A stretch of 64,000 nt of DNA from Fimicolochytrium jonesii. Lineage: Eukaryota. The notes beneath the pieces are model-generated. The model saw nothing but the letters and a program-made list of their open reading frames with translations, was not told where the DNA came from and did not search any database. The translations under genes were made by a program, and so were the position numbers. Every line of letters starts with the position of its first letter. Within the stretch, counting starts at the first letter, position 1. Of the stretch, positions 1 through 55,783 are shown one piece after another. Where the stretch lies: positions 62,001 to 126,000 of the forward strand of contig NW_026515672.1 of assembly GCF_025526975.1 (NCBI RefSeq), read 5' to 3'.

Positions 1-3000
1 CCGCAAGCACCGCATCCCACTGGTCAAGAAGGAGGACCCCATTGCGCTTGAACTGGTTGACGGACGTCCCAGCCATGCGGGCTCCATTACCCATCACACC
101 CAACCTTTGGGCATGTGGGTCAACGACCATTTTGAGGAGGTGGTATTCCATGTGACATGTTCCCCGCATGCGCCAATCATCCTGGGGCTTCCCTGGTTTG
201 AGCTCCATGATGTGGAGCTACATTGGAAGACTCGCACTCTTTCCGTCCGCTGCCATTGCGGTTTTAGGACAATACGCCTCCTGGGATGCCCTGCCAACAG
301 AACCTAGCCCGAAGCCCTCAAGAACCCCTGAACCTCTGATCCGTATCCATCAAGACGAGATTTCAGTCTCCCTAGCCCAGACACCCAACACACTGGACCC
401 AGCACCCACACCGATCCACGTATCGTTTATCAGCGCCCCAGCTTTCCGTGTGGCGGCAAGGCATGACCAGGCATTCATTGCCTACGCCAATCCGACCAAG
501 TCAGATTCCCAAGCCCTGGCGACCACTCCTCCAAAAGATCCGAAGGCCATCATTCCTGAAGAATACCAGGATTTTGCGGACGTCTTCGCCAAGAAGAACG
601 CGGATACCCTCCCAGAGCACCGACCCTACGACTGTCCCATCGACTTAGAAGAGGGCAAACAGCCACCGTTCGGCCCGATCTATAGTCTCAGCGAGCCTGA
701 AATGCAGGCACTCTGTGACTACCTTGAAGAGAACCTAGCTAAGGGGTTCATCAAGCACTCCAAGTCTCCCGCCGGTGCCCCAGTCCTCTTTGTCAAGAAA
801 AAGGACGGTTCCCTCCGTCTGTGCGTCGACTATCGTGGACTCAACAATATCACCATCAAGAATCGCTATCCCTTGCCCTTGATTAACAGCATCATGGATC
901 GTCTTCGAGGGGCACGCCGGCTCACCAAGATTGACCTCCGGGGAGCCTACAACCTTCTTCGGATCCGGCCAGGGGATGAATGGAAGACAGCGTTCCGATG
1001 TCGCTACGGCCTATTCGAGTATAATGTCATGCCGTTTGGGCTCACCAATGCCCCTGGAGTATTCCAACACCTCATGAACGACATATTCCGTGACATTCTC
1101 GACGTTTTTGTTGTGGTCTACCTTGACGACATTCTGATCTTCTCAAAAAACCCAGAAGACCACCCCACCCACGTCCGAGAGGTGCTCTCACGACTCCGCC
1201 AGCACGGGCTGTATGCGAAACCGGAAAAATGCGACTTCAACCGTGACTCTGTTGAGTTCCTGGGGTTTATCATCTCCCAGCAAGGCATTTCCATGGACCC
1301 AAAGAAGACGGCTGCCACTACCGAATGGGAATCCCCCGACGAATGTCAAAGGCATCCAGCGCTTCCTTGGTTTTGCCAACTTCTACCGGCGATTCATCAA
1401 AGGGTACTCTGCGATCGTTGCACCCCTGACCACGCTCACTCGCAAAGACTTGCCATTCAAATGGACCCACGCTGCACACCTAGCTTTTGAAACCCTCAAG
1501 AAAGCCTTCACCTCCGCACCTATCCTGACTCACCCCGACCCTGACAAGCCCTTCATTGTCGAATCCGATGCCTCCGACTTTGCCCTTGGCGCCGTCCTCC
1601 TTCAACCCGATGACACAGATCAACTCCACCCCGTGGCCTTTCACTCCCGCAAATTTACTCCTGAGGAAATCAACTATGAGATCTACGACAAGGAACTCCT
1701 GGCTATCCAAGACTCATTTGCTCAATGGCGACACCACCTCATTGGTGCCCGCCACAAGGTCATCGTTTACTGTGACCACAAGAACCTCCAGTACTTCATG
1801 ACTACCCGTACCCTCAACCGCCGCCAATCCCGCTGGTCAATCTTCTTTGCTGATTTCGACTTTGTCATCACATACCGCCCTGGTACCCAGCAACACCAAG
1901 CTGACGCCCTCTCTCGTCGCTCTGAATACGAGCTAAGGGAGGGGGAAGAAGCATTCCGCTCCCAGGAAACCACGATCCTCACCCCTGACCATCTCCGCCT
2001 GGCCGCCACTTATCTGACCCCACTGGACTCCTCGCTCCTTGACCAAATCAAAGCTGCCCTGGCATCCGATGTGTTTGCGCAAACCATCCGGCGACAGCTT
2101 AGGGCCCCCATTGCCCAGCAATCTCAAGAAGACCAAGAACGGATAAAGCGATTCTCCGAGGAAAATGGGGTTCTGCTGTACGACAACCTTGTCTACGTCC
2201 CCACCAACAAGCTCCGTGCTGAGATCTGCCGGGACATGCATGACACGCGTTTGGCAGGACACTACGGCATGTCAAAGACCCTGGAGCTCATCTCACGCAA
2301 CTACTGGTGGCCTAGCCAGTGGCGTTTTGTCAAGTCCTACATCAGGTCCTGCGACGTATGTGCTCAAGCCAAGACCAGCAGACACAAGCCCTACGGTCTC
2401 CTCCAACCCCTGCAGGTCCCTGACCGCCCCTGGGGGTCAATTTCCATGGACTTCATCACGGATCTACCCGCCAGTGATGGGGTTGATTCTGTGCTCGTTG
2501 TCATCTGCCGGTTCACCAAGATGGCGCACTTTGTACCGTGCAGGAAAACTGCCACCGCTGAGTCAACTGCAGATCTGATCTGGCACCATGTCATCCGGCT
2601 CCATGGACTCCCCGACGATATTGTATCTGACCGTGGCCCACAGTTCAACTCCCACTTCTGGAAACGTCTCTTCGCTCTCCTGGGAACCAAGGTCAACCTC
2701 TCATCGGCGTTCCATCCCCAGAGCGATGGACAAACCGAGCGGACCAATCAGATTCTTGAGCAATACCTTCGCTGCTTTTGCAACTATCAACAAGATAACT
2801 GGAAGGAACTCTTGTCTTCTGCTGAGTTCTCTTACAATAACACCATCCACTCCGCCACCCAGACAACCCCCTTCTACGCCAACTATGGGTTCCATCCTCG
2901 ATTCAGTCTGGCTTCCGCCACCACAACCGAATCCCTTAATCCTGCAGCCGAAGCTCGTGCCAACCATCTCAAGGAAATCCATGAACAGCTTGCCACTGAG

Positions 3001-3537
3001 CTCAAGGAGGCCCAAGGACGCATGAAGCGCTTTGCCGATGCTAAGAGGGCACCTGGCCCAGACATGAAACCCGGGGACAGTGTCTGGCTCTTACAGCGGA
3101 ATCTCAAGACTCTCCGACCTTCCCAGAAACTTGATCACCGTAAGATTGGCCCCTTCACAATCACGGAGAAGATCAACTCGGTCACATATCGCCTCAAGCT
3201 TCCCCCATCCTACAAAATTCACAACGTCTTCCATGTCTCCCTTCTTGAACCACGTTTCACCATTCCGGAGCGAACTGAGCCAGAACCCACCCCACCAGAA
3301 GAAGTCGAAGGACAGGAGGAATGGATTGTGGAAGACATTCTTGACTCCCGTATTCGACGCACGCACCTTCAGTACCTCATCAAGTGGCAGGGTTGGCCAA
3401 GCTCGGAGAACACATGGGAGCCAGTGGAACACCTTGCCCGATGTCAAGAGCTTGTTGCCCAGTTCCACCAAAAGTACCCCGACAAACCCCGACCAAAGCC
3501 TGCCAACATCAAAACAACATCCGGACGCCGTGGCTAA
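1..3537 (+). pseudogene. pol: Copy 1 PR (partial)-RT-RH-IN-chromodomain, frameshifted
   Basis: RT motifs LCVDYRGLN and YLDD; RNase H ESDASD; IN HHCC and SMDF/SDRG/TER; chromodomain. An extra T at ~1332 relative to copies 2/3 splits ORFs 168-1490 and 1213-3537. Confidence 0.93.
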
Positions 3538-3549
3538 AGGAGGGGGTGA

Positions 3550-4143
3550 TGTTATGGACGACGCGTCCATACCATGCGCTTACCTCATGACAGCATCCCA
3601 ACAGTCAGTCAATGTCAATTCCCTGTCAAAACCTGACATCTGCCAAACCTCGCAGCCGCACGCAGCCGCGCTACCCCACACCTGCCACTGCCTTCATTTC
3701 TCCAGGCAGCCGCACGTAGCCACACCTCCCAACACTCGGCGCTTACAAACCCTTCTCCATACTTCCCCACGTACCCGCCCACAGCTTCAGCGTAGCCACC
3801 CCATCCCCAGTCTTCTGTTTCCATACTTCCCCACGTACCCGCCCACAGCCTCAGCGTAGCCACCCCATCCCCAGTCTTCTGTTTCTATGCTTCCCCACCC
3901 TTGGCGCTTCTCTTGGCTTCCTTCTCATTCCGTACCCTTCTGCTTCCCCACGCTTCCCCAGCCTTCCCAGAAAAACATAAATAGCCGCCTCCCCTGAGCT
4001 CCCCACTTCCTGATCCCCCAGCAGATCAACACCAGTTCTTCCTAGTCTTGTTCTAGTTCTTGTTTCGGTCTGAATACTATTACCTGTCAACAACCTGCAC
4101 CACAAGTCGCCTCTATTTTCATCGGCTCCGCCCATTCATAACA
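3550..4143 (+). repeat. LTR-a (594 bp), shared between copies 1 and 2
   Basis: Termini TGTTATG...CATAACA; directly after the PPT; internal 64-bp tandem duplication 3756-3883; TATA-like ATAAATA at ~3977. Confidence 0.95.
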
Positions 4144-4194
4144 GTTTGATCTGCTCAACAACCCCCAGCCGCTGTACCTCCACGCCAAATCACC

Positions 4195-5123
4195 ATGTCC
4201 GACGCCCTTCCCCTCACGGCCGAAGCCTGGCAAGCCATGTGCAATGCGATTGACGAACTTCGAGCGCAGAATACCACCCTACAAGCCGAACTAGCGCAAA
4301 GCCAGACCACTGCCCCTGCCACCCACGCCCCCGAACCCAAAATCAGTCTCCCAGACAAATTTGATGGCACCCGAAGCAAGTTCCGTGGGTTCCTCAGTCA
4401 GATCCGGCTCATGTTCGCCCTCCAACCCAGGCGCTACCCCAACGATCAGACCAAGATACGAACTATTGGCACCTACCTCACTGGCACCGCCCAGGCCTGG
4501 CTGGCGCCCCTTGTCGAACAAGACCATCATTCCCTTACGAAACCTGGATGATTTCATCCAGCAAATGCAAGCAGCCTTTGGAGACAGTGACAGGATCCGC
4601 ATGTCCTGAAAACAAGCTCCAGAACCTTCGACAAACCCGTGCAGCAACAGAGTATGTAGCTGAATTCCGACAGCTGCAATGCGATGTGTCGTGGAATGAC
4701 CAGGCATTGATTGCCACCTTCCGTCGCGGCCTCAAAGAAGACGTCAAGGACTTAATGCTCACGATGCCCCCTACCGCCTCAATCGACACCGTGATGGAAC
4801 AGGCCATCCAATGTGACAACCGATTGTTTGAGCGCCGTCTAGAGCAAAGCAGGAACCGACAGCCATATGTGCCAGTTACCACTAGCCCCACCCTCATGAG
4901 CCCCGACAACCGCCCAGACGACCCTATGATCATTGACGCTGCTCGTCCGCGAGGACCCCTCACACCGCTAGAGCGCCAACACCGCATCACAAACAAACTT
5001 TGCCTCTACTGTGGTAAACCCGGCCACATAGCCAAACTCTGCCCGAACAAGATACGCACGGCGAATGTCGCGGTTAAGGAACCTGCACCCATCCAGGATT
5101 TTGCCCAAGTCCAGCTGCAGTAA
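4195..5123 (+). pseudogene. gag: Copy 2 Gag, frameshifted
   Basis: PDKFDG motif and CCHC knuckle CLYCGKPGHIAKLC. Two 1-nt insertions (~4540, ~4606) relative to the intact copy at 9612. Confidence 0.9.
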
Positions 5124-5722
5124 AGGCCGAGCAGCTGGGCAACACCTGTCCTGGGCCTTCTCACCACGCAAGTACTGCCAAGGGAGAAGCCACAAAACCT
5201 TGCTCCGATCCTGGCATCTCCAGCAACACCCTTCTCCTGACCACCAACAATGTCAATCTCCTATCTGAGATACCCTCACCCATGCGGACTTTGGGCCCAT
5301 CCTCACCATTCGAGTACCCTGTTACCCTGCAGATATCGGCCCAGCGAGCTCCAGTTCAGCTTTCAGCACTACTCGACACCGGTGCGATGTCGTGCTTCAT
5401 CGACGAAAGTTATGCCCGCAAGCACCGCATCCCACTGGTCAAGAAGGAGGACCCCATTGCGCTTGAACTGGTTGACGGACGTCCCAGCCATGCGGGCTCC
5501 ATTACCCATCACACCCAACCTTTGGGCATGTGGGTCAACGACCATTTTGAGGAGGTGGTATTCCATGTGACATGTTCCCCGCATGCGCCAATCATCCTGG
5601 GGCTTCCCTGGTTTGAGCTCCATGATGTGGAGCTACATTGGAAGACTCGCACTCTTTGCGTCCGCTGCCATTGCGGTTTTAGGACAATACGCCTCCTGGG
5701 ATGCCCTGCCAACAGAACCTAG
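5078..5722 (+). CDS. Copy 2 aspartic protease, in the -1 frame relative to gag
   Basis: LLDTGA active site and IILGLPW. The frame is open from 5078 and overlaps the gag 3' end. Confidence 0.88.
5096..5159 (+). promoter_or_regulatory. Predicted -1 ribosomal frameshift signal (G GAU UUU + H-type pseudoknot); identical copy at 10511-10574
   Basis: Heptamer phased to gag codons; stem CCAGCTGC/GCAGCTGG; loop AAGGCC complementary to downstream GGCCTT. Confidence 0.75.
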
Positions 5723-8700
5723 CCCGAAGCCCTCAAGAACCCCTGAACCTCTGATCCGTATCCATCAAGACGAGATTTCAGTCTCCCTAGCCCAGACACC
5801 CAACACACTGGACCCAGCACCCACACCGATCCACGTATCGTTTATCAGCGCCCCAGCTTTCCGTGTGGCGGCAAGGCATGACCAGGCATTCATTGCCTAC
5901 GCCAATGCGACCAAGTCAGATTCCCAAGCCCTGGCGACCACTCCTCCAAAAGATCCGAAGGCCATCATTCCTGAAGAATACCAAGATTTTGCGGACGTCT
6001 TCGCCAAGAAGAACGCGGATACCCTCCCAGAGCACCGACCCTACGACTGTCCCATCGACTTAGAAGAGGGCAAACAGCCACCGTTCGGCCCGATCTATAG
6101 TCTCAGCGAGCCTGAAATGCAGGCACTCTGTGACTACCTTGAAGAGAACCTAGCTAAGGGGTTCATCAAGCACTCCAAGTCTCCCGCCGGTGCCCCAGTC
6201 CTCTTTGTCAAGAAAAAGGACGGTTCCCTCCGTCTGTGCGTCGACTATCGTGGACTCAATAATATCACCATCAAGAATCGCTATCCCTTGCCCTTGATTA
6301 ACAGCATCATGGATCGTCTTCGAGGGGCACGCCGGCTCACCAAGATTGACCTCCGGGGAGCCTACAACCTTCTTCGGATCCGGCCAGGGGATGAATGGAA
6401 GACAGCGTTCCGATGTCGCTACGGCCTATTCGAATATAATGTCATGCCGTTTGGGCTCACCAATGCCCCTGGAGTATTCCAACACCTCATGAACGACATA
6501 TTCCGTGACATCCTCGACGTTTTTGTTGTGGTCTACCTTGACGACATTCTGATCTTATCAAAAAACCCAGAAGACCACCCCAACCACGTCCGAGAGGTGC
6601 TCTCACGACTCCGCCAGCACGGGCTGTACGCGAAACCGGAAAAATGCGAATTCAACCGTGACTCTGTTGAGTTCCTGGGGTTTATCATCTCCCAGCAAGG
6701 CATTTCCATGGACCCAAAGAAGACGGCTGCCATTACCGAATGGGAACCCCCGACGAATGTCAAAGGCATCCAGCGCTTCCTTGGTTTTGCCAACTTCTAC
6801 CGGCGATTCATCAAAGGGTACTCTGCGATCGTTGCACCCCTGACCACGCTCACTCGCAAAGACTTGCCATTCAAATGGACCCACGCTGCACACCTAGCTT
6901 TTGAAACCCTCAAGAAAGGCTTCACCTCCGCACCTATCCTGACTCACCCCGACCCTGACAAGCCCTTCATTGTCGAATCCGATGCCTCCGACTTTGCCCT
7001 TGGCGCCGTCCTCCTTCAACCCGATGACACAGATCAACTCCACCCCGTGGCCTTTCACTCCCGCAAATTTACTCCTGAGGAAATCAACTATGAGATCTAC
7101 GACAAGGAACTCCTGGCTATCCAAGACTCATTTGCTCAATGGCGACACCACCTCATTGGTGCCCGCCACAAGGTCATCGTTTACTGTGACCACAAGAACC
7201 TCCAGTACTTCATGACTACCCGTACCCTCAACCGCCGCCAATCCCGCTGGTCAATCTTCTTTGCTGATTTCGACTTTGTCATCACATACCGCCCTGGTAC
7301 CCAGCAACACCAAGCTGATGCCCTCTCTCGTCGCTCTGAATACGAGCTAAGGGAGGGGGAAGAAGCATTCCGCTCCCAGGAAACCACGATCCTCACCCCT
7401 GACCATCTCCGCCTGGCCGCCACTTATCTGACCCCACTGGACTCCTCGCTCCTTGACCAAATCAAAGCTGCCCTGGCATCCGATGTGTTTGCGCAAACCA
7501 TCCGGCGACAGCTTAGGGCCCCCATTGCCCAGCAATCTCAAGAAGACCAAGAACGGATAAAGCGATTCTCCGAGGAAAATGGGGTTCTGCTATACGACAA
7601 CCTTGTCTACGTCCCCACCAACAAGCTCCGTGCTGAGATCTGCCGGGACATGCATGACACGCGTTTGGCAGGACACTACGGCATGTCAAAGACCCTGGAG
7701 CTCATCTCACGCAACTACTGGTGGCCTAGCCAGTGGCGTTTTGTCAAGTCCTACATCAGGTCCTGCGACGTATGTGCTCAAGCCAAGACCAGCAGACACA
7801 AGCCCTACGGTCTCCTCCAACCCCTGCAGATCCCTGACCGCCCCTGGGGGTCAATTTCCATGGACTTCATCACGGATCTACCCGCCAGTGATGGGGTTGA
7901 TTCTGTGCTCGTTGTCATCTGCCGGTTCACCAAGATGGCGCACTTTGTACCGTGCAGGAAAACTGCCACCGCTGAGTCAACTGCAGATCTGATCTGGCAC
8001 CATGTCATCCGGCTCCATGGACTCCCCGACGATATTGTATCTGACCGTGGCCCACAGTTCAACTCCCACTTCTGGAAACGTCTCTTCGCTCTCCTGGGAA
8101 CCAAGGTCAACCTCTCATCGGCGTTCCATCCCCAGAGCGATGGACAAACCGAGCGGACCAATCAGATTCTTGAGCAATACCTTCGCTGCTTTTGCAACTA
8201 TCAACAAGATAACTGGAAGGAACTCTTGTCTTCTGCTGAGTTCTCTTACAATAACACCATCCACTCCGCCACCCAGACAACCCCCTTCTACGCCAACTAT
8301 GGGTTCCATCCTCGATTCAGTCTGGCTTCCGCCACCACAACCGAATCCCTTAATCCTGCAGCCGAAGCTCGTGCCAACCATCTCAAGGAAATCCATGAAC
8401 AGCTTGCCACTGAGCTCAAGGAGGCCCAAGGACGCATGAAGCGCTTTGCCGATGCTAAGAGGGCACCTGGCCCAGACATGAAACCCGGGGACAGTGTCTG
8501 GCTCTTACAGCGGAATCTCAAGACTCTCCGACCTTCCCAGAAACTTGATCACCGTAAGATTGGCCCCTTCACAATCACGGAGAAGATCAACTCGGTCACA
8601 TATCGCCTCAAGCTTCCCCCATCCTACAAAATTCACAACGTCTTCCATGTCTCCCTTCTTGAACCACGTTTCACCATTCCGGAGCGAACTGAGCTAGAAC

Positions 8701-8954
8701 CCACCCCACCACCAGAAGAAGTCGAAGGACAGGAGGAATGGATTGTGGAAGACATTCTTGACTCCCGTATTCGACGCACGCATCTTCAGTACCTCATCAA
8801 GTGGCAGGGTTGGCCAAGCTCGGAGAACACATGGGAGCCAGTGGAACACCTTGCCGGATGTCAAGAGCTTGTTGCCCAGTTCCACCAAAAGTACCCCGAC
8901 AAACCCCGACCAAAGCCTGCCAACATCAAAACAACATCCGGACGCCGTGGCTAA
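5583..8954 (+). CDS. pol: Copy 2 RT-RNaseH-integrase-chromodomain open frame
   Basis: 1123-aa uninterrupted ORF with YLDD, RNase H, HHCC, DDE, GPF module and chromodomain (YLIKWQGW...ENTWEP). Confidence 0.95.
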
Positions 8955-8966
8955 AGGAGGGGGTGA

Positions 8967-9560
8967 TGTTATGGACGACGCGTCCATACCATGCGCTTAC
9001 CTCATGACAGCATCCCAACAGTCAGTCAATGTCACTTCCCTGTCAAAACCTGACATCTGCCAAACCTCGCAGCCGCACGCAGCCGCGCTACCCCACACCT
9101 GCCACTGCCTTCATTTCTCCAGGCAGCCGCACGTAGCCACACCTCCCAACACTCGGCGCTTACAAACCCTTCTCCATACTTCCCCACGTACCCGCCCACA
9201 GCTTCAGCGTAGCCACCCCATCCCCAGTCTTCTGTTTCCATACTTCCCCACGTACCCGCCCACAGCCTCAGCGTAGCCACCCCATCCCCAGTCTTCTGTT
9301 TCTATGCTTCCCCACCCTTGGCGCTTCTCTTGGCTTCCTTCTCATTCCGTACCCTTCTGCTTCCCCACGCTTCCCCAGCCTTCCCAGAAAAACATAAATA
9401 GCCGCCTCCCCTGAGCTCCCCACTTCCTGATCCCCCAGCAGATCAACACCAGTTCTTCCTAGTCTTGTTCTAGTTCTTGTTTCGGTCTGAATACTATTAC
9501 CTGTCAACAACCTGCACCACAAGTCGCCTCTATTTTCATCGGCTCCGCCCATTCATAACA
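8967..9560 (+). repeat. LTR-b (594 bp), shared between copies 2 and 3
   Basis: Near-identical to LTR-a (one substitution seen), same TG...CA termini. Confidence 0.95.
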
Positions 9561-9611
9561 GTTTGATCTGCTCAACAACCCCCAGCCGCTGTACCTCCAC
9601 GCCAAATCACC

Positions 9612-10538
9612 ATGTCCGACGCCCTTCCCCTCACGGCCGAAGCCTGGCAAGCCATGTGCAATGCGATTGACGAACTTCGAGCGCAGAATACCACCCTACA
9701 AGCCGAACTAGCGCAAAGCCAGACCACTGCCCCTGCCACCCACGCCCCCGAACCCAAAATCAGTCTCCCAGACAAATTTGATGGCACCCGAAGCAAGTTC
9801 CGTGGGTTCCTCAGTCAGATCCGGCTCATGTTCGCCCTCCAACCCAGGCGCTACCCCAACGATCAGACCAAGATACGAACTATTGGCACCTACCTCACTG
9901 GCACCGCCCAGGCCTGGCTGGCGCCCCTTGTCGAACAAGACCATCATTCCCTTACGAACCTGGATGATTTCATCCAGCAAATGCAAGCAGCCTTTGGAGA
10001 CAGTGACAGGATCCGCATGTCTGAAAACAAGCTCCAGAACCTTCGACAAACCCGTGCAGCAACAGAGTATGTAGCTGAATTCCGACAGCTGCAATGCGAT
10101 GTGTCGTGGAATGACCAGGCATTGATTGCCACCTTCCGTCGCGGCCTCAAAGAAGACGTCAAGGACTTAATGCTCACGATGCCCCCTACCGCCTCAATCG
10201 ACACCGTGATGGAACAGGCCATCCAATGTGACAACCGATTGTTTGAGCGCCGTCTAGAGCAAAGCAGGAACCGACAGCCATATGTGCCAGTTACCACTAG
10301 CCCCACCCTCATGAGCCCCGACAACCGCCCAGACGACCCTATGATCATTGACGCTGCTCGTCCGCGAGGACCCCTCACACCGCTAGAGCGCCAACACCGC
10401 ATCACAAACAAACTTTGCCTCTACTGTGGTAAACCCGGCCACATAGCCAAACTCTGCCCGAACAAGATACGCACGGCGAATGTCGCGGTTAAGGAACCTG
10501 CACCCATCCAGGATTTTGCCCAAGTCCAGCTGCAGTAA
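9612..10538 (+). CDS. gag: Copy 3 Gag, intact (308 aa)
   Basis: Retrotransposon gag motifs (PDKFDG, EYVAEF, FRRGL) and CCHC knuckle. Confidence 0.93.
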   Translation: MSDALPLTAEAWQAMCNAIDELRAQNTTLQAELAQSQTTAPATHAPEPKISLPDKFDGTRSKFRGFLSQIRLMFALQPRRYPNDQTKIRTIGTYLTGTAQAWLAPLVEQDHHSLTNLDDFIQQMQAAFGDSDRIRMSENKLQNLRQTRAATEYVAEFRQLQCDVSWNDQALIATFRRGLKEDVKDLMLTMPPTASIDTVMEQAIQCDNRLFERRLEQSRNRQPYVPVTTSPTLMSPDNRPDDPMIIDAARPRGPLTPLERQHRITNKLCLYCGKPGHIAKLCPNKIRTANVAVKEPAPIQDFAQVQLQ

Positions 10539-13500
10539 AGGCCGAGCAGCTGGGCAACACCTGTCCTGGGCCTTCTCACCACGCAAGTACTGCCAAGGGA
10601 GAAGCCACAAAACCTTGCTCCGATCCTGGCATCTCCAGCAACACCCTTCTCCTGACCACCAACAATGTCAATCTCCTATCTGAGATACCCTCACCCATGC
10701 GGACTTTGGGCCCATCCTCACCATTCGAGTACCCTGTTACCCTGCAGATATCGGCCCAGCGAGCTCCAGTTCAGCTTTCAGCACTACTCGACACCGGTGC
10801 GATGTCGTGCTTCATCGACGAAAGTTATGCCCGCAAGCACCGCATCCCACTTGTCAAGAAGGAGGACCCCATTGCGCTTGAACTGGTTGACGGACGTCCC
10901 AGCCATGCGGGCTCCATTACCCATCACACCCAACCTTTGGGCATGTGGGTCAACGACCATTTTGAGGAGGTGGTATTCCATGTGACATGTTCCCCGCATG
11001 CGCCAATCATCCTGGGGCTTCCCTGGTTTGAGCTCCATGATGTGGAGCTACACTGGAAGACTCGCACTCTTTGCGTCCGCTGCCATTGCGGTTTTGGACA
11101 ATACGCCTCCTGGGATGCCCTGCCAACAGAACCTAGCCCGAAGCCCTCAAAACCCCTGAACCTCTGATCCGTATCCATCAAGACGAGATTTCAGTCTCCC
11201 TAGCCCAGACACCCAACACACTGGACCCAGCACCCACACCGATCCACGTATCGTTTATCAGCGCCCCAGCTTTCCGTGTGGCGGCAAGGCATGACCAGGC
11301 ATTCATTGCCTACGCCAATCCGACCAAGTCAGATTCCCAAGCCCTGGCGACCACTCCTCCAAAAGATCCGAAGGCCATCATTCCTGAAGAATACCAAGAT
11401 TTTGCGGACGTCTTCGCCAAGAAGAACGCGGATACCCTCCCAGAGCACCGACCCTACGACTGTCCCATCGACTTAGAAGAGGGCAAACAGCCACCGTTCG
11501 GCCCGATCTATAGTCTCAGCGAGCCTGAAATGCAGGCACTCTGTGACTACCTTGAAGAGAACCTAGCTAAGGGGTTCATCAAGCACTCCAAGTCTCCCGC
11601 CGGTGCCCCAGTCCTCTTTGTCAAGAAAAAGGACGGTTCCCTCCGTCTGTGCGTCGACTATCGTGGACTCAACAATATCACCATCAAGAATCGCTATCCC
11701 TTGCCCTTGATTAACAGCATCATGGATCGTCTTCGAGGGGCACGCCGGCTCACCAAGATTGACCTCCGGGGAGCCTACAACCTTCTTCGGATCCGGCCAG
11801 GGGATGAATGGAAGACAGCGTTCCGATGTCGCTACGGCCTATTCGAGTATAATGTCATGCCGTTTGGGCTCACCAATGCCCCTGGAGTATTCCAACACCT
11901 CATGAACGACATATTCCGTGACATTCTCGACGTTTTTGTTGTGGTCTACCTTGACGACATTCTGATCTTCTCAAAAAACCCAGAAGACCACCCCAACCAC
12001 GTCCGAGAGGTGCTCTCACGACTCCGCCAGCACGGGCTGTATGCGAAACCGGAAAAATGCGAATTCAACCGTGACTCTGTTGAGTTCCTGGGGTTTATCA
12101 TCTCCCAGCAAGGCATTTCCATGGACCCAAAGAAGACGGCTGCCATTACCGAATGGGAACCCCCGACGAATGTCAAAGGCATCCAGCGCTTCCTTGGTTT
12201 TGCCAACTTCTACCGGCGATTCATCAAAGGGTACTCTGCGATCGTTGCACCCCTGACCACGCTCACTCGCAAAGACTTGCCATTCAAATGGACCCACGCT
12301 GCACACCTAGCTTTTGAAACCCTCAAGAAAGCCTTCACCTCCGCACCTATCCTGACTCACCCCGACCCTGACAAGCCCTTCATTGTCGAATCCGATGCCT
12401 CCGACTTTGCCCTTGGCGCCGTCCTCCTTCAACCCGATGACACAGATCAACTCCACCCCGTGGCCTTTCACTCCCGCAAATTTACTCCTGAGGAAATCAA
12501 CTATGAGATCTACGACAAGGAACTCCTGGCTATCCAAGACTCATTTGCTCAATGGCGACACCACCTCATTGGTGCCCGCCACAAGGTCATCGTTTACTGT
12601 GACCACAAGAACCTCCAGTACTTCATGACTACCCGTACCCTCAACCGCCGCCAATCCCGCTGGTCAATCTTCTTTGCTGATTTCGACTTTGTCATCACAT
12701 ACCGCCCTGGTACCCAGCAACACCAAGCTGACGCCCTCTCTCGTCGCTCTGAATACGAGCTAAGGGAGGGGGAAGAAGCATTCCGCTCCCAGGAAACCAC
12801 GATCCTCACCCCTGACCATCTCCGCCTGGCCGCCACTTATCTGACCCCACTGGACTCCTCGCTCCTTGACCAAATCAAAGCTGCCCTGGCATCCGATGTG
12901 TTTGCGCAAACCATCCGGCGACAGCTTAGGGCCCCCATTGCCCAGCAATCTCAAGAAGACCAAGAACGGATAAAGCGATTCTCCGAGGAAAATGGGGTTC
13001 TGCTGTACGACAACCTTGTCTACGTCCCCACCAACAAGCTCCGTGCTGAGATCTGCCGGGACATGCATGACACGCGTTTGGCAGGACACTACGGCATGTC
13101 AAAGACCCTGGAGCTCATCTCACGCAACTACTGGTGGCCTAGCCAGTGGCGTTTTGTCAAGTCCTACATCAGGTCCTGCGACGTATGTGCTCAAGCCAAG
13201 ACCAGCAGACACAAGCCCTACGGTCTCCTCCAACCCCTGCAGGTCCCTGACCGCCCCTGGAGGTCAATTTCCATGGACTTCATCACGGATCTACCCGCCA
13301 GTGATGGGGTTGATTCTGTGCTCGTTGTCATCTGCCGGTTCACCAAGATGGCGCACTTTGTACCGTGCAGGAAAACTGCCACCGCTGAGTCAACTGCAGA
13401 TCTGATCTGGCACCATGTCATCCGGCTCCATGGACTCCCCGACGATATTGTATCTGACCGTGGCCCACAGTTCAACTCCCACTTCTGGAAACGTCTCTTC

Positions 13501-14364
13501 GCTCTCCTGGGAACCAAGGTCAACCTCTCATCGGCGTTCCATCCCCAGAGCGATGAACAAACCGAGCGGACCAATCAGATTCTTGAGCAATACCTTCGCT
13601 GCTTTTGCAACTATCAACAAGATAACTGGAAGGAACTCTTGTCTTCTGCTGAGTTCTCTTACAATAACACCATCCACTCCGCCACCCAGACAACCCCCTT
13701 CTACGCCAACTATGGGTTCCATCCTTGATTCAGTCTGGCTTCCGCCACCACAACCGAATCCCTTAATCCTGCAGCCGAAGCTCGTGCCAACCATCTCAAG
13801 GAAATCCACGAACAGCTTGCCAGTGAGCTCAAGGAGGCCCAAGGACGCATGAAGCGCTTTGCCGATGCTAAGAGGGCACCTGGCCCAGACATGAAACCCA
13901 GGGACAGTGTCTGGCTCTTACAGCGGAATCTCAAGACTCTCCGACCTTCCCAGAAACTTGATCACCGTAAGATTGGCCCCTTCACAATCACGGAGAAGAT
14001 CAACTCGGTCACATATCGCCTCAAGCTTCCCCCATCCTACAAAATTCACAACGTCTTCCATGTCTCCCTTCTTGAACCACGTTTCACCATTCCGGAGCGA
14101 ACTGAGCCAGAACCCACCCCACCAGAAGAAGTCGAAGGACAGGAGGAATGGATTGTGGAAGACATTCTTGACTCCCGTATTCGACGCACGCACCTTCAGT
14201 ACCTCATCAAGTGGCAGGGTTGGCCAAGCTCGGAGAACACATGGGAGCCAGTGGAACACCTTGCCCGATGTCAAGAGCTTGTTGCCCAGTTCCACCAAAA
14301 GTACCCCGACAAACCCCGACCAAAGCCTGCCAACATCAAAACAACATCCGGACGCCGTGGCTAA
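10493..14364 (+). pseudogene. pol: Copy 3 PR-Pol, disrupted
   Basis: Two 1-nt deletions (~11095, ~11150) relative to copies 1/2, and a CGA>TGA nonsense change at 13726-13728 in integrase. Confidence 0.92.
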
Positions 14365-14376
14365 AGGAGGGGGTGA

Positions 14377-14906
14377 TGTTATGGATGACGCGTCCATACC
14401 ATGCGCTTACCTCATGACAGCATCCCAACAGTCAGTCAATGTCAATTCCCTGTCAAAACCTGACATCTGCCAAACCTCGCAGCCGCACGCAGCCGCGCTA
14501 CCCCACACCTGCCACTGCCTTCATTTCTCCACGCAGCCGCACGTAGCCACACCTCCCAACACTCGGCGCTTACAAACCCTTCTCCATACTTCCCCACGTA
14601 CCCGCCCACAGCCTCAGCGTAGCCACCCCATCCCCAGTCTTCTGTTTCTATGCTTCCCCACCCTTGGCGCTTCTCTTGGCTTCCCTCTCATTCCGTACCC
14701 TTCTGCTTCCCCACGCTTCCCCAGCCTTCCCAGAAAAACATAAATAGCCGCCTCCCCTGAGCTCCCCACTTCCTGATTCCCCAGCAGATCAACACCAGTT
14801 CTTCCTAGTCTTGTTCTAGTTCTTGTTTTGGTCTGAATACCATTACCTGTCAACAACCTGCACCACAAGTCGCCTCTATTTCCATCGGCTCCGCCCATTC
14901 ATAACA
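14377..14906 (+). repeat. Terminal LTR-c (530 bp)
   Basis: Only one 64-bp unit and about 7 substitutions versus LTR-a/b; followed by non-element sequence GACAC. Confidence 0.95.
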
Positions 14907-15874
14907 GACACGCCGATAATACTGTTGGCGCTGCGCTCGGCTGATTCCGGCTCTACGGAGATGCAGTACGACTTGCTTCAAACCAAGCCTTTCATTGACA
15001 TAGCGCAGAAACATTTGCATAAAATGCTCCTGTATGTTGACTTTGAGGTTGGTGAAGATGCTCGTAGCTGTGTACGCTGCGGTCTGTTGGCTATTGCGCA
15101 TGCAGATGGGGGCAAATCCGTGAACATTACAGTACTCTTGAACCCGTGGACGCAACTCTTGCGTGATGGTCGGACTGCCATTGTGGCCGGGGTTGTTTAG
15201 CAGCTCAAATATCACACAAATGTGCTTGTCGGTAGTGTCCGGGAAATCGGGTAGAGGATGATCGGCTGCGGTGGGCACGTAGTAGTCAGGACATTATTTC
15301 ATGGGAACCATACAGTGTACCTCAAAAACTTACCAAGGTAGTACTTGAGAAAGAAGGTGGTGTGGCGCGCAAGGACGTGAACATTGCCGATGAACGTTGT
15401 CAGGCGCCCCCTTTGCACTTGATTGTGATTTTGGATTCAGTGAAGGGAAACCTTCGTGCTGGCATGCGTCTGCGGGCGGGGTCGTTGAACTGGTGGTGGA
15501 GGTGGGGCTTCAAGCACCAGGGATCCACCCGGTGTGCTGGGAAAACGGGAAGGGATGGGAGCGGGGAGGTTCAACGGACGCTGCAGACCCCTGTCGACGG
15601 GTGAAAGCCCTCGCTGCTGGTGCTGTTGCCCGTCTTCATCGCCAGAACTCTCGCTAACCATGTCTGCGATTGCTTGGGGCAAGTGGCGCTGGACAGATGG
15701 TGGGAACTCGAATCGAGGGCGCGGGGCCTGCAATGGCGTCTGTACGGCGGGTGGCAGACGTATGGGCAACCGCGGGGTAACTGGAGCAACCTTCCTCCTC
15801 TTCTGCCGTGGTGTGGTTGCTCCAGTAAATATGCCACACCACAGGTGCCCCTGGAGCGCTTGGTGTGATGACAT
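14907..15874 (-). pseudogene. N-terminal half of a Fanzor1 RNA-guided nuclease gene, interrupted by the LTR array
   Basis: Spliced translation (intron 15266-15333): ...THASTKVSLH*...VHVLARHTTFFLKYYL/ADHP...IFELLN...VQEYC...TNLKVNIQEHFMQMFLRYVNERL. This is colinear with SpuFz1 as recalled (TNLKVNVQEHFMQMLLRYIN). NLS-like PRQKRRK; in-frame TGA at 15437-15439. Confidence 0.85.
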
Positions 15875-49800: not shown

Positions 49801-51181
49801 TGAAAATGACAGGGCGCCTCGAGTCTTTTCCGGAAAACGGTGTTTGGGGCGTCAGACACTTTCTCGAAGTTCACGGGCAGTGTGGGCAAAGGTTAGTTGT
49901 TTCACAGTGAGGTTTCTCTCCGGCATGGCACACATTGACTTACTACGCGTGGTTCAGGTCTGTCCGTCATCACGATGGACTCGGAATTCCAGGAAAGGAG
50001 GCGGCTTACCAGCATCAGGTACATTTTTGCTGTGGTCCTGTTCTCATGGCCCAGTTCTCACACTGTCTCAGGAATCGCCCACGGCATGCGGTGTACGGAG
50101 TGACAACTGGCGCTACGTCACTAGCGAGAAGTGTGGCGAGCGGCATTACAGGTCTTGTGGTACGTCCCAAGAGGCAGCTGCGTCGGCGTTATACGCGCAA
50201 ACCTAATTGCATTACTTGTGTAGTCGAAGCCTATCGAGGGAGCAGATGCTGAAGGCGTTGGCGGGTTCTTCAAGGGCATTGGGAAGGGCATAGTCGGGTA
50301 AGTGTTAGCGTAGCCGTTTCCGCTGTTCGTTGCTAATCATAGCCTTGCACAGAGTGGTCACGAAGCCTGTTGTTGGAGTGTTCGACTTGGCTACAAATGT
50401 TGGCGAGGGTAAGAATGGTGTAATCCACCGCACGGCATCTCCTTAGGCGTCCGCTAATGTGGGAGTTCCAGGTATTCGTAATACGACAACGGTCTTTGAC
50501 GCCGATCTGGATCGTACGCGGTTACCTCGATTTATTGGAAAAGACAGGGTCCTGGTGGTAAGACCGGTGTATGGGTTCCGAGTACCCAATATCAATTGGC
50601 TGACTGAGTCTGTGGCAGCCTTACAATCCGAGGGACGCTTTGGGTCTCAATTGGCTTAAGGGACTCGAAAATGGAAGGTTCTTCCATGAAGACTACATTG
50701 CACATCTGGGTACGACAGACGGTCATTTGCAACTTCCGTAACGTGCATAAACTTACACTACCTTCGAATAGAACTGCGGATAGAAGATCTGGTTGCCATT
50801 GTGACTGATCAGAGGATCGTCATGGCCCGCATCAAGCGACTGAAGATGGATTGGGACATTGGCTACGATGGTATGTCACAATTCGACGCGATTCGGTACG
50901 CACGCACTTTCTAATCCTCTCTTTCATGTCGTTACATAGAGGTTCAAAATGTGCGGGCGGAAGGCAACAGCGTCAACATTTTGCGGAAAGGACGATTGGA
51001 GTCCCGATTAAGGGTCATCCCGTGCCCTGATGTCGCTAGTGCGCAGGTGAGTCTCGCAGGTCCCCCTCAGGCATGACCAATGATTGTTTCTCTGAAAGGT
51101 CTTTCGGTTTCTCAGTGGTTGAGCGGCAAGATCGAGGGTGCCTTTGCGGCATACATCGACCAATTCCGCGGAATAGAATGA
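40860..51181 (+). CDS. VPS13: Vacuolar protein sorting 13 lipid-transfer protein (multi-exon)
   Basis: Chorein N-terminus (MFE..LGEYV..LSIGIWQGDV.L.NL..LTLSIPW), SHWEPLIE, VAB repeats, LQIDNQL, IGSADFLGNPVGL, ATG2-like C-terminal helices. Confidence 0.96.
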
Positions 51182-51312
51182 TTCGATATGTCACAAGGGT
51201 ACCTCTGTACATAGCAGCAACTCTGTACTGTATCTCATAGGTTTATAGTCCGTACTAGAAGAGCTTTAGGTCTAATGAAAATATATCCTCTGGTTCGCAA
51301 GGCTGAGTCCAT

Positions 51313-51555
51313 TTGTGGGGAAACGAGCATCTGGCTTCTCCATACCACGATACCCCGGTCTATCGCTGTCCGGAGCCCATCTCTGCAGGGAACAGGACCG
51401 TTTTCAAGACACTCAGTGGGCTCAGTCAGCATATCGAGACGGAGGTCTGCGGCGGTCGGGATACCTTTGCAGAACTCTTGACTTACGTCACAGAGAGGCT
51501 AAGGGCTGTCAACATTCAGATAGGCTTGTTAGTGTGTAGCAATGTAGCAATGTAG
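51313..51555 (+). pseudogene. Zinc-finger-like gene fragment
   Basis: YRCP...FKTLSGLSQHIETEVCG resembles the end of fungal C2H2/C2HC proteins; no clear start. Confidence 0.35.
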
Positions 51556-51593
51556 CAATATAGTATGTCGTCCCTTTGCAATTGTGCGTCTAA

Positions 51594-52046
51594 CTAAGGG
51601 GGAAAGTCCGGGTGCACACAGGTCTTGGGACGACCTCCCCAGGTGATGTTGGAATCTGCATAGTCCAGTAGCCCAAAGCTGTCCCCTGTGCCTCCTTGTG
51701 CTCGATGCTTAGCATTGAGGCGGTCCACCATAGCAGCTTCAAATCTCCAAATCTTGAACCGGTGCGCCTCCTCCTCCGCAGAGGGATAGACCTTATTGAA
51801 GCGAACTTTCCATTCCAGCCATCGTTGCCGTAGCGCTGGATCCTGATTTGACATGGTTGGTTAGCGAGAAAGGGTGCAATCTACTCTAGCCCACTTGAGA
51901 CTATACAAAGGAGCACTTACGTCTGGAGGTGCCTGGAGACGGAAGACGATCTCTCTATCCAAAATCTCTGTCAGCCGGGATGCTTCGCAGACTTCATTCA
52001 GCTCAGCATCTGAGAGGGTCTTTAGAAAGCTTTTAATCTTTTCCAT
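51594..52046 (-). CDS. Stand-alone cathepsin propeptide inhibitor (I29) domain protein, two exons
   Basis: WLEWKVRFNKVY..EEEAHRFKIW......N......FGL..YAD (ERFNIN/GNFD-like). Intron 51843-51920 (GTAAGT..CTAAC..CAG) fuses it in frame to ATG 52046. Confidence 0.75.
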
Positions 52047-52139
52047 TGACGATTGTTGAACTTGAGTCCGATACAAAAGAATCGCTCACAAATAGTCAAA
52101 ACTAACAAAGTAGAATCACGCGGGGGAGAAAAGGGACTT

Positions 52140-52261
52140 TGACTAGCTGAGCAGAGAGTGAGCAGACATCCTAAGGAGCTGTATCAACCCCATGATAACG
52201 AGAGTCTTGGGATGACGGAGCTCGTCCTCGTTCCAGTCGCAGAGCGCCACGTCGGAGAGGA
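52140..52261 (-). ncRNA. Candidate Fanzor omegaRNA scaffold region (ends uncertain)
   Basis: Directly 3' of the Fanzor2 stop; imperfect hairpin GAGCT-TCATCCCA...TGGGGTTGA-AGCTC at 52176-52223. Confidence 0.4.
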
Positions 52262-54087
52262 TCATGCGGTTGAAGAGCCTGAGGTTGCGGACGGGTTCGG
52301 TGACCGGCTTGTACCAGCGGCGGACGTTGTTGCAGTCGGCGTTGAAGTGTCTTGAGTGTCTTGCTCATCTTCAGAGTCCTCGACCCATTCGTACTTGCCG
52401 ACGCAATTCTTCAGACCATGGTTGCGAGCGCCATGGACGTCTCGATGCACTCGATGGCCGCAGTCTCTGCAGTGAAAGAGCTTGCCATTGACTTGGTCTT
52501 GAATGACCCCGCATCGGTTGCAAGTCTTGGTGGTGTATTCCTCTCCAAGGATCTCCACAAGGGACCCACGAAGTTCTTCCTCTCGCATTTGGAGCGCGCG
52601 GCGAAAGGGGGCGTGGCACCAGGTGAGGAGGTCTCTAGCTGTGCGGCGAGCGATGCGACGACGGCGACCGTTTTCATCCACTCGGCGAACCATTTGCTCG
52701 GTCTCAAAGGGCGAAGTGTGCACGTATTGAAAGTTGTGGGTCAGGTATTGAGCCACGCGGAGGTTGCCCTCTCTAACCCGATCCTGAATCCGTTCGTGGC
52801 ATAAGAACCGGTTGCGGCGCAGATAGCGTTTCTTCCATGGTGGATGGTATTCATTCGAGTCCATGACGGAGACAGTCGATCGATCCGCTCCTGATACCTT
52901 CGAAGGCGATTCAGGTCGTCCGCCGTCCCAAAAGAGCCGGCTTGCATCCGAGTGGGAGAGTAATAATTCACAAACGGGTTGGATCCGGGATCAAGGGCGG
53001 CCAAATGACCCCTCGCGTCGGGGTTCAAGTCCTCATAGGCTTGTAGATGGGGACGTGCATTACCCACTTGCCGGTGCCGCTGTGTGCACAATCTTGACTT
53101 CGCGATCGGGACCGTTAGGGTATCGATTGAGGACTCGTTTTTGATCCCTTGTTCGCACGCGTAGCTTGCCTTCGTCGGGGAGCTGGGTAATGTAGCATTG
53201 CCATCGCTTCCCCACCTTTTTCGACCAATTCTGAGGAGGGACGGTGATGGACCAATAAGGGTGCTTGACACTTCGGAAGCTCGGAGTAGTGAATTCCCCT
53301 GTTTCCCTGTATCGTTTGAATTGCGCCTTGTACGCTTCGGCCAATTCTTGCATGGTCGCTTCTCGCACCGAACATGGCGTGTCTTTGAGGTGGCGGAGCT
53401 TGCATGGGAACCGAGACATTTTGCATGTGACAAAGTTCTTTTTCAGTGCTTCAAAGTTGATGGGAATGATGGTCTTTCCGTGCTTTGCGTACTGCTTCCG
53501 AAGTACTCCGAGTACCCAGTTGTATGTCTTTCGGGCCGAGTGCATCCATTCCTTGAGTGTCTTCTTTTGTCCAGCCGTAGGAAAAATGCGGACGCGCCAT
53601 GTTCGCTGGACGTGACCCTCGGGAATCATTCTCTTGCTACGGCGTTGAACTTGTGTCCGTATGGAGTCCGTATCGGAGGAAGATCCCAAAGCAAGGAGCT
53701 GCAATGAGACATGGAAACGCTGAAAGTCACGTGATTCGCTCGCCCGATGTTTTTTCAACCGCCTATAAAAAGCAGCCAGTTCCATTTTCCGTCCGCCGCC
53801 AATCTGCGTATCAATCTCGATCCAGTACAGTGTGCTTGGTGCTTCCAACTAAGGCACACCCGTACGCTGCCAGGTTGTTGCCGGGTCGCTGCCGGGGCGT
53901 TGTCTATACTGGCGACACTGTTCTTGGTGCGCTGTATACACATCCCACCCCGGCTTCGACTGTTCAACAGGTGAGCATCCTCAATACGGCATGGAGGAGT
54001 TCGGACAGCAGAGGAAGTAGGGACGGGGGCCCTCACCTTGTTCAGTGACGATATATATGACCCAGTTAATGAGTCAGAACGCCCCAT
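52262..54087 (-). pseudogene. Fanzor2/TnpB-like RNA-guided endonuclease with frameshifts
   Basis: HTH RTWRVRIFPT..QKKTLKEW..ARKTYN; RuvC-I ALDPG; SPFETEQM; EEYTTKTCNRCG; FHCRDCG; RuvC-III RDVHGARN. About 3 frameshifts in 52860-53090; probable intron 53960-54036; in-frame TAG at 53849-53851. Confidence 0.88.
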
Positions 54088-55783
54088 GTCGAAACATTCA
54101 TCGCATTTAAGTTTCAGCCTTGACCGAGAACTATTTGGGCCCCACTACACTTCCTCTCTCTTCTCTCTCGAACGTTCCCTTTACATCGGCTGGGAGAATC
54201 GTTGGATTGTTAGGGGCTTCATTTGCTGATCGTCTTCTGTTTACTGTCCCACAAGATGTTTAGGTGACACTCCTTTCCGGGGCTGGTCCACTACACGACT
54301 GACCCTTCGTAGCTAACTACTGGTGAGTGCATTTGCCAATCCCCTGGTTACTGCGAGGAAGCAAAAGAGCCGGGATCGTTGGAAGGCAGCCGGGATTGAT
54401 GAAGCTATATTGACGGGCGGACAGAACTGTGTTAGTACAAACACTATTTACAATGTTGAACGTCAATGTGCTGACTCGTGCTAAGGCGAACGAGATGCGG
54501 AATGAACAAATTCACCCCGACAATGTCACTGACATCCTCTCTTTCGCAATCAGTTCTTGTAGGTCTTTTAGGAGCCGCTGCCGCCATATGACAGTTTATT
54601 TTTGCCGACTGTTTTTCATGGTAAGCATCACACCTCCCCATCCCGGAAAGGACGGGAGAGATGCCCCAGATTTCGAATGATTAATACTGTTAGTCTGCAA
54701 AGACAGACCACTTACCATGGTGATTCAAATAACGTTCGGTTCATCAATGACGAAATCTGGTGGCTCTCGTCCCTGTTCCTTCCCTCGAGTGTTGAATGTC
54801 ACACGTTGATATGCCATCCTAACTTTCGTAAAGTCTTCCTTAGGTCTTCGACGAATGCGTTCTCAAGGTTTCCGTCTCCTCAAGAATATCCCATTGGAAT
54901 CGGGTCGTTGATGAGAAGCGACTGGGACAAGAGGGTCTGTCAACGTATCAGCGCCAGCGGCACTCACGCCTCCACTCCAATGAGGGTCGCACAATGCGAG
55001 GCCGCTCACTCTTCAGATCACGTTGACTTGATACCGCCTGTTCCAGTCCCTCGCATTCAGGCCCCATAGCGCCGGAACAATCTCACTCTTTCTTAGTGGG
55101 GGGAAGTCCGCCGATTGCTCCGTTTGGCGTTGGCTTCCCTACGTGAGCGACCGGCAAGAGCATGTAAGAACGCAGATTCGCTAACACAGCGACTTTATTA
55201 TCCGTGTCCTGCGTTTGATAGTAGACTGCGGGACAAAACCCATATGATGTGTAGACTTGGTGCTTGAGGAATGAAAAAAAAATGAGAAAGATACTACTCA
55301 AGTGTTGCGTTGACGCTGGAAGGCGGATGCCTTTGGCACCTCGTTCATGTGCTGCTTCGAGTTTCCGCTCTTGGGCTCTTGCTCATTGGCGAATAACCCA
55401 TCAGGTTAACTTCGGAGATCGGACGGGATCCGGTCCTTTCTGGTGTGTATGGCCGTAGTTATCAAGTCCTGAGTTGTTGCGAGTTCTCAACGAACCGGTC
55501 TGTTCGCCATCATTATACTAGTCCGACAACGGGGGGCATGATTCCACATCCATCAACGGCAAGATTCAAACATGTCTCCATGAGTTGCTGATATATTACA
55601 CTTGACGTACATCAGGTGGTTTCTCTCAGTATTCACAAAAACATGAAATAGGAAGACCACAGAATCCTCTATATCCGTCCCCGTTTCCCAAAATCCCCTT
55701 TGTCGACTCCCACAAAATACGCGCATATGCAAACCCGGTGTGTACTAATAGAGGCGAGGGGGGTGAGTGAAGGGTCCGAACGC

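Follow-up and report, generated by a model that had tools for sequence, protein, structure and literature searches.

A solitary Fanzor2-type gene with three frame breaks in the chytrid Fimicolochytrium jonesii, likely a recently inactivated relic

Introduction

Fanzor2 proteins are broadly present in fungi (PMC10432273), and the question raised by the locus described here is whether it holds a working Fanzor nuclease, the remnant of one, or a protein of another kind. The locus lies in a stretch of 64,000 nucleotides of Fimicolochytrium jonesii DNA (RefSeq assembly GCF_025526975.1, contig NW_026515672.1, positions 62,001 to 126,000 of the forward strand), referred to as the window, with all coordinates counted from its first letter. 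An initial annotation, made from the letters alone, had read positions 52262..54087 as a decayed Fanzor of Fanzor2/TnpB type with a probable intron. Our analysis points to a solitary minus-strand gene of Fanzor2 type. Three breaks interrupt its reading frame, and for that reason it is likely a recently dead relic of the gene for an RNA-guided DNA-cutting enzyme. The locus comprises the following parts.

52265..53638, minus strand: putative Fanzor2-type pseudogene, with its stop codon at 52264-52262
53638-52382, minus strand: block homologous to intact relatives
52381-52265, minus strand: tail specific to this copy, rich in acidic residues, Ser and Thr

Homology and protein architecture

A tblastn search of the window with P0001, an intact relative of 480 aa, gave an E-value of 1e-131, with full-length homology over 53638-52382. 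Joining the four pieces of the reading frame, with X placed at each break, gives a read-through that shares 60% identity with P0001 over 421 positions. A profile built from 13 relatives (alignment A1) was then searched, without filtering, against the full set of 2620 six-frame segments from the 64-kb window, matching four segments, every one at the Fanzor2 locus, with E-values of 4e-71, 1e-61, 4e-24 and 0.015 and jointly tiling profile positions 54-479. Homology at the locus is far beyond chance.

The domain order is a helix-turn-helix (HTH), a wedge and recognition region (WED/REC), RuvC-I (DPG), RuvC-II with an alternative Glu, a CxxC..CxxC finger and RuvC-III (RD). Pfam HTH_OrfB_IS605 is found on the 5' open frame at 53474-53611 (E 9.4e-10), bearing out the N-terminal HTH of the initial annotation, and the 3' open frame matches the Cas12f1-like TNB zinc ribbon at 52421-52576 (E 1.3e-13). 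The RuvC-I Asp of ALDPG occupies 52990-52992, and the alternative RuvC-II Glu occupies 52541-52543 (within the EE of GEEYTT, 52538-52543), six residues ahead of the first CxxC. The zinc finger is formed by CNRC (52511-52522) and CRDC (52460-52471), followed by the RuvC-III Asp of HRDVHGARN at 52439-52441. Read off the sequence, these coordinates agree with those first given for the Asp of ALDPG, the EE of GEEYTT and the Asp of RDVHGARN. The positions of DPG, the alternative Glu and the RuvC-III Asp are all three invariant (13/13 relatives). The canonical RuvC-II Glu position had been assigned a Pro; profile alignment to the mimivirus protein ApmFz2 places there the Ser of HTSPFE (52712-52714), with Pro one residue later at 52709-52711. 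The identity of the residue was thus off by one, while the lack of a conserved Glu at this site stands, no conserved acidic residue being found there across the 13 relatives.

Fanzor class and likeness to known systems

The Fanzor fingerprint combines DPG at RuvC-I with a Glu that precedes the first CxxC by six residues (PMC10711439). Expressed as DPG x(120,160) E x6 CxxC x(12,18) CxxC x(4,8) D (PMC10711439), it matches the read-through, with a DPG-to-Glu distance of 147 residues. The shifted catalytic Glu proposed at the outset is therefore real here, yet nothing special to this copy, being the norm for all Fanzors (PMC10530073, PMC10711439): Pro or Gly takes the place of the canonical Glu, and the alternative Glu, essential in ApmFNuc, lies about 45 residues away (PMC10530073).

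Against the PDB, the family profile matches ApmFz2 (9b0l) over its full length at E 3.1e-29 (profile 10-466 against chain 75-507), with TnpB and Cas12f at 1e-11 to 1e-7, and SpuFz1 (8gkh) is not listed at E<=1. An AlphaFold model of P0001, the relative 60% identical to the window copy, has a mean predicted local distance difference test (pLDDT) score of 69.8; its best match in the fold search is again 9b0l (E 2.3e-17, template modelling (TM) score 0.60), and SpuFz1 follows at rank 32 with a TM score of 0.27. Both the profile and the fold tests used relatives 40-60% identical to the window copy, the Pfam HTH having been found on the window piece itself. A recognisable HTH_OrfB_IS605 has been described for TnpB and Fanzor2 (PMC3627910), and the full-length relatives measure 480-546 aa, Fanzor2 proteins being compact at about 500 aa. 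On the strength of the family profile and the predicted fold, the class is Fanzor2, upholding the type first proposed. No kinship with SpuFz1-type Fanzor1 proteins is seen in either test, and the motifs of canonical TnpB are absent, RuvC-I reading DPG and the canonical RuvC-II position holding Ser.

ApmFz2, the mimivirus TnpB-like protein L79, is the best solved match by both sequence profile and fold. It shares with the window copy the domain order, DPG, RD, an alternative Glu placed six residues ahead of the first CxxC, and a canonical RuvC-II site without Glu; in ApmFNuc, D324A and E467A each abolish cleavage (PMC10530073). Identity is merely ~19%, and whereas ApmFz2 belongs to giant-virus elements of IS607 type that carry a serine recombinase (PMC3627910), the window copy resides in a fungal chromosome, has no partner gene, is frame-broken, and bears an extra acidic, Ser- and Thr-rich tail of 39 aa. 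Fanzor2*, the form of Fanzor2 captured by non-IS607 eukaryotic transposons (PMC10711439), resembles the locus in its eukaryotic genome and in having no IS607 TnpA nearby, but is defined by the terminal inverted repeats (TIRs) together with the target-site duplications of cut-and-paste transposons (PMC10711439), and the window gene lacks flanking inverted repeats, its sole flanking repeat being a marginal direct one of 16 nt. SpuFz1, from Spizellomyces punctatus, a fungus in the same order as F. jonesii, is an RNA-guided RuvC nuclease of the same DPG and alternative-Glu fingerprint class (PMC10711439), although Fanzor1 proteins are larger and carry extra REC insertions (PMC10711439). ISDra2 TnpB of IS200/IS605 (8h1j, 8exa) shares the core fold, with TM scores of 0.51-0.56 to the P0001 model, together with the HTH_OrfB_IS605 and TNB domains; canonical TnpB, however, has D-hydrophobic-G, and its Glu precedes the finger by about 50 residues (PMC10711439), unlike the window copy with its DPG and shifted Glu.

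The reading frame and its three breaks

The frame runs along the minus strand in four pieces, listed from the N-terminus.

53081..53638, minus strand: piece 1, first frame, 186 aa (SKRMIPEG...KIVHT), with the HTH and the WED/REC part
53079..53080, minus strand: frame break 1, two stray bases GC
53034..53078, minus strand: piece 2, second frame, 15 aa, GTGKWVMHVPIYKPM, matching profile positions 245-261 at E 0.015
53032..53033, minus strand: frame break 2, two stray bases AG
52870..53031, minus strand: piece 3, third frame, 54 aa, DLNPDARGHLAALDPG...IDRLS, with the RuvC-I Asp
52868..52869, minus strand: frame break 3, two stray bases CC
52265..52867, minus strand: piece 4, first frame again, 201 aa, with the RuvC-II site, alternative Glu, finger and RuvC-III Asp

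All three breaks fall inside 213 nt, with 2 stray bases left at each, giving positions (53079-80, 53032-33, 52868-69) to frameshifts that the initial annotation had left unplaced. Intact relatives encode residues uninterrupted over all three sites, reading ...KIVHRAGKWYMHV straight across at the point of break 1. Introns and programmed frameshifts were both rejected as explanations, because each gap measures 2 nt and the relatives are coding across it. Judged from the sequence, the breaks look like three one-base losses, and the one continuous open reading frame (ORF) that a functional Fanzor2 nuclease needs is not present.

The locus is already represented among public proteins by XP_052927417.1 (uncharacterized protein EV422DRAFT_576950, F. 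jonesii; P0012 among our relatives), which is identical to the window wherever its exons keep the window's frames. This model spans break 1 with a 28-nt "intron" deleting the conserved GKWVMHVPIYK, while a second "intron" of about 195 nt deletes conserved RuvC sequence, the remainder continuing in the wrong frame with loss of the zinc finger. Neither intron was accepted, the first measuring 28 nt against 63 and 73 nt for real introns in the window, and both deleting conserved coding sequence. The model is a prediction artefact, since its 28-nt "intron" bridges a break and it ends out of frame.

Inactivation or assembly error

The best-surviving alternative to a dead relic is that the organism carries an intact gene and the breaks are assembly errors, in which case it would encode a potentially active Fanzor2 nuclease of about 460-510 aa. 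We consider this unlikely, but several observations weigh against inactivation and lend it substance. The four pieces contain no nonsense codon in about 420 homologous codons, and the catalytic D/E/D and both CxxC pairs of the zinc finger are intact. Among columns invariant in all 13 relatives, 44/48 are kept, the four lost ones all being conservative changes (one N>D, the rest K>R). A leave-one-out count gave 48 of 48 to 57 for the intact relatives, about the same as for the window copy. The breaks are clustered and of the same sign, each one base short, and sum to -3, so that the N- and C-terminal pieces share one frame, which is a little odd for independent events. Decay this minimal also fits an intact gene with assembly errors, and XP_052927417.1, derived from the same assembly, gives no independent check of the breaks.

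Further points of this kind concern the identity of the enzyme and its RNA. The Fanzor2 assignment of the window copy rests on 60% identity to the family, the profile and fold results coming from relatives. The 3' region at 52420-52060(-) folds no more stably than its shuffles (z +1.0), thus offering no signal of the kind expected for an omega RNA (ωRNA), and it has no DNA similarity to the 3' flanks of five metagenome loci with relatives (L001-L005). Such a lack of ωRNA signal fits decay, but the RNA part of the mechanism is unsupported at the locus.

The remainder of the window speaks for genuine losses. Its VPS13 exons, about 8 kb in length (762 + 601 + 1326 codons) and with canonical introns between them that measure 63 and 73 nt (GTAAGG or GTATGT ... 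CTRAY ... CAG), contain no break, whereas about 19 would be expected arithmetically at the density of the Fanzor gene. Long-read errors concentrate in runs of identical bases, and none of the three break sites (0/3) lies in a run of >=3 identical bases. ORF continuity varies among the three Ty3/gypsy copies in the window, suggesting that indels specific to single copies are resolved by the assembly. Additionally, in a maximum-likelihood tree of 21 rows, comprising the gene family and distant relatives, the end branch of the window copy is about twice that of its intact sister P0001 (0.43 vs 0.22). Because the VPS13 exons are unbroken, the breaks are taken as real; they are probably one-base deletions and not assembly errors, as far as the assembled sequence can tell. 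The label "decayed" in the initial annotation holds for the frame, but only in a mild sense, since three frame breaks and nothing else set the copy apart as dead.

The C-terminal tail, 39 aa rich in Asp, Glu, Ser and Thr, is absent from every relative. Relatives stop 0-15 residues past the last conserved motif, and the ancestral stop codon seems to have been lost or shifted in this copy.

Gene start and the proposed intron

The initial annotation had joined an ATG at 54087 to the gene through a phase-0 GT-AG intron. Three features bear on this proposal.

53960..54036, minus strand: proposed 77-nt intron (GTGAGG...CTCAC...AACAG), intron-like, unsupported by homology
53849..53851, minus strand: in-frame TAG separating the proposed exon 2 from the HTH piece
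53783..53785, minus strand: candidate start ATG (MELAAFYRRL...), the first in the HTH-piece frame after the TAG

A start at ATG 54087 followed by this intron, with the TAG as a further decay mutation, is in our judgement quite improbable, even if its signals are in order. The GT lies at 54036-54035 and the AG at 53961-53960; exon 1 comprises 51 nt, or 17 codons, giving phase 0; the spliced frame is that of the HTH piece; the length, phase and signals resemble those of the window's real introns; and many Fanzor genes have gained introns (PMC10530073). The splice nevertheless gives no continuous ORF, because the frame meets TAG 53851-53849, 36 codons past the splice. GT..AG pairs of such length are common by chance, the N-terminal regions of 20 relatives have no match upstream of 53645 (all E>=0.05, 900-nt database), and XP_052927417.1 uses other splice sites and another start, an ATG at about 53947. 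The in-frame ATG 53785 makes the intron needless and would be the simplest start. The splice signals, phase and frame described earlier are thus present, while the spliced gene that they were meant to yield is stopped short.

A resemblance of LSWKHQAH, in the frame of ORF 53755-54144, to the SWFHH motif of the relatives was considered and dropped, with BLASTP at E>=2 and the profile not reaching it. An Rfam search of 51000-55000 gave nothing above threshold and three sub-threshold snoRNA-like (small nucleolar RNA) matches. Two of these are snR41 at 54039-54132 (+), scoring 27.7 bits against a gathering score of 50 and overlapping the proposed exon 1, and SNORD43 at 54391-54478 (+), scoring 22.7 against 45. 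These C/D-box matches upstream of the Fanzor gene are probably due to chance.

A surviving 5' protein or a bacterial TnpB

A third alternative holds that a truncated 5' protein survives as a host DNA- or RNA-binding factor, encoded by the 262-codon frame 53848-53063 and retaining the HTH and WED/REC but no nuclease. The frame is long and open, and the N-terminal half is well conserved (profile E 4e-71). The downstream pieces, however, are equally conserved (E 1e-61 and 4e-24), arguing for recent loss of the whole gene over selection on its 5' part alone, and we rate a surviving fragment as very unlikely.

That the sequence is a bacterial TnpB, present by contamination or very recent transfer, is hardly credible: although its Pfam domains are those of prokaryotic TnpB and Fanzor2 is the class nearest bacterial IS607 TnpB (PMC10711439), the same DNA carries VPS13 and I29-domain genes with spliceosomal introns as well as Ty3/gypsy elements, the named close relatives are all chytrids, the DPG and alternative-Glu fingerprint is present, and a pattern scan of limited sensitivity over 185,579 prokaryote species genomes returned no relative.

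Relatives and possible routes of transfer

The 21-row tree unites the read-through with P0001 and a protein of Geranomyces variabilis (support 99/98). Among 20 clusters looked up, 4 bear an organism name, in each case a chytrid: one is from F. jonesii, one from G. variabilis, and Borealophlyctis nickersoniae accounts for two. The other 16 are metagenome proteins. The wider family counts 10,982 representatives at E<=1e-3 and 1227 at E<=1e-30. The scan of prokaryote genomes, made with two short peptide patterns, gave 33 pattern matches, and the same approach in viral contigs, again with two short peptide patterns, gave 15 matches and no relative. Metagenome contigs yielded the five loci L001-L005.

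One of these, L003, is a 28.6-kb contig with an N-terminally shortened relative. Beside it, at 1-11047, lie a PIF1 helicase, a deoxynucleoside monophosphate (dNMP) kinase/NT5C gene, a Fic gene and a ribonucleotide reductase large subunit in two frames; a 45-nt tandem repeat occupies 4213-4551. Together these genes resemble the content of a large DNA virus. Since, in addition, a lone giant-virus capsid gene has been reported in a strain of the same species as the window (PMC12247965), viral delivery of the Fanzor2 gene is possible.

A tentative broader reading, for which we claim far less confidence than for the dead relic itself, is that the window copy is a freshly killed member of an undescribed chytrid Fanzor2 lineage spanning Spizellomycetales, Rhizophlyctidales and environmental sequences. 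Such a lineage would travel without an IS607 recombinase, have intact compact members such as the 480-aa P0001, and might cross hosts on giant viruses of zoosporic fungi.

Surroundings of the gene and element ends

The flanks of the gene contain the following features.

51594-52085, minus strand: small gene encoding an I29 (cathepsin-propeptide inhibitor) domain, interrupted by one intron-like gap
53644..53659, minus strand: upstream member of a pair of 16-nt direct repeats, 6 nt ahead of the first homologous codon
52055..52070, minus strand: downstream copy of the repeat, 192 nt past the stop and 9 nt before the I29-gene ATG

On one side, the gene is neighboured by the end of VPS13 (about 50.9 kb) and by the I29-domain gene, which lies downstream on the same strand, its ATG only some 216 nt from the Fanzor stop; the sequence on the other side is unassigned. 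The window also holds VPS13, Rad51-like and WW/FF genes, Ty3/gypsy elements and canonical spliceosomal introns, placing the locus in a eukaryotic genome, as befits a Fanzor. No recombinase or transposase family was matched by any of the 126 six-frame segments of >=45 aa at 49.2-58.2 kb (E<=0.01), nor by the 6 segments adjoining the gene at E<=1, in accordance with the initial annotation; an adjacent IS607-type serine recombinase TnpA is therefore lacking within about 4 kb of the gene. Solo TnpB or Fanzor2 copies are known, so that the missing recombinase lowers the case for an autonomous IS607 element and not that for a Fanzor2 protein. No inverted repeats were found flanking the gene, which is compatible with an IS607-type element, as these have no TIRs. 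The description as a non-autonomous element was correct as to the missing recombinase or transposase, but overstated as a conclusion, because no element ends were found.

The two copies of the 16-nt direct repeat, identical at 15/16 bases, bracket the homology block. Shuffled sequences attain their alignment score in 0.15% of cases, and real window pairs at equal spacing in 3/294, making the repeat marginally unusual. Its 9-mer core gives 13 matches against 20.4 expected, hence no enrichment, and no such repeat is present at loci L001 and L002. The flanks were, moreover, chosen post hoc, and the repeat was not accepted as evidence of element ends. A near-duplicate 9-mer precedes the upstream copy (TACGGACTC / TACGGACAC).

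Proposed history of the locus

By analogy with ApmFz2 and other Fanzor2 proteins, the intact ancestral enzyme would have bound an ωRNA whose template was the gene's own 3' end (PMC10530073, PMC10432273, PMC11832414). Guided in this way, it would have cut matching DNA adjacent to a target-adjacent motif (TAM) through the triad of D, alternative E and D, as the literature on ApmFz2 describes, and such cutting may have helped its element persist. A mobile element, IS607-like or of another kind, may have brought the gene in, and the partner gene and ends of that element would since have gone or become unrecognisable. With breaks lying ahead of the RuvC-I Asp and again just past it, any product made now would lack the nuclease.

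A second Fanzor fragment beside a Ty3/gypsy array

The initial annotation had placed two Fanzor classes within about 37 kb, and this is borne out, both being relics.

14970..15158, minus strand: SpuFz1-like (Fanzor1) N-terminal fragment, aa 46-108 of ORF 14850-15293(-)

Against PDB sequences, this ORF matches 8gkh (chain P) at E 4.2e-14. A scan of all six frames of the window for the zinc-finger/RuvC-III motif found only the finger at 52.4 kb, indicating that the SpuFz1-like piece is an N-terminal fragment without a second such motif to complete it. The fragment directly adjoins three tandem Ty3/gypsy copies, and the rest of the Fanzor1 gene was probably cut off by retroelement insertion. The three copies, which carry a chromodomain, occupy 156-14743 (+) with strongly negative GC skew; the middle one has an unbroken pol frame of 1127 codons (5571-8954), and the outer two are split into several frames.

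Implications

The locus is likely an ordinary, recently inactivated solo Fanzor2 gene of an already known kind and not a working system. With Fanzor2 in fungi already reported (PMC10432273), a single broken locus in itself matters little. The public model XP_052927417.1, however, hides a Fanzor2 pseudogene and constitutes an annotation to be corrected. Chytrid Fanzor counts drawn from annotated proteomes are probably too low, because this model is an artefact and the other three named chytrid models, one of G. variabilis and two of B. nickersoniae, lack a TNB match or full coverage.

The names Fimicolochytrium and Geranomyces and the prefix EV422DRAFT are absent from 9 supplementary files of PMC10432273, and the intact compact relatives (480-546 aa) seem not to have been listed previously. 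These relatives are candidates for small RNA-guided nucleases and point to an unsampled chytrid Fanzor2 lineage. Finally, the presence of a nearly undecayed Fanzor2 relic and a Fanzor1 fragment in one window shows that both Fanzor classes were once active in this fungal lineage.

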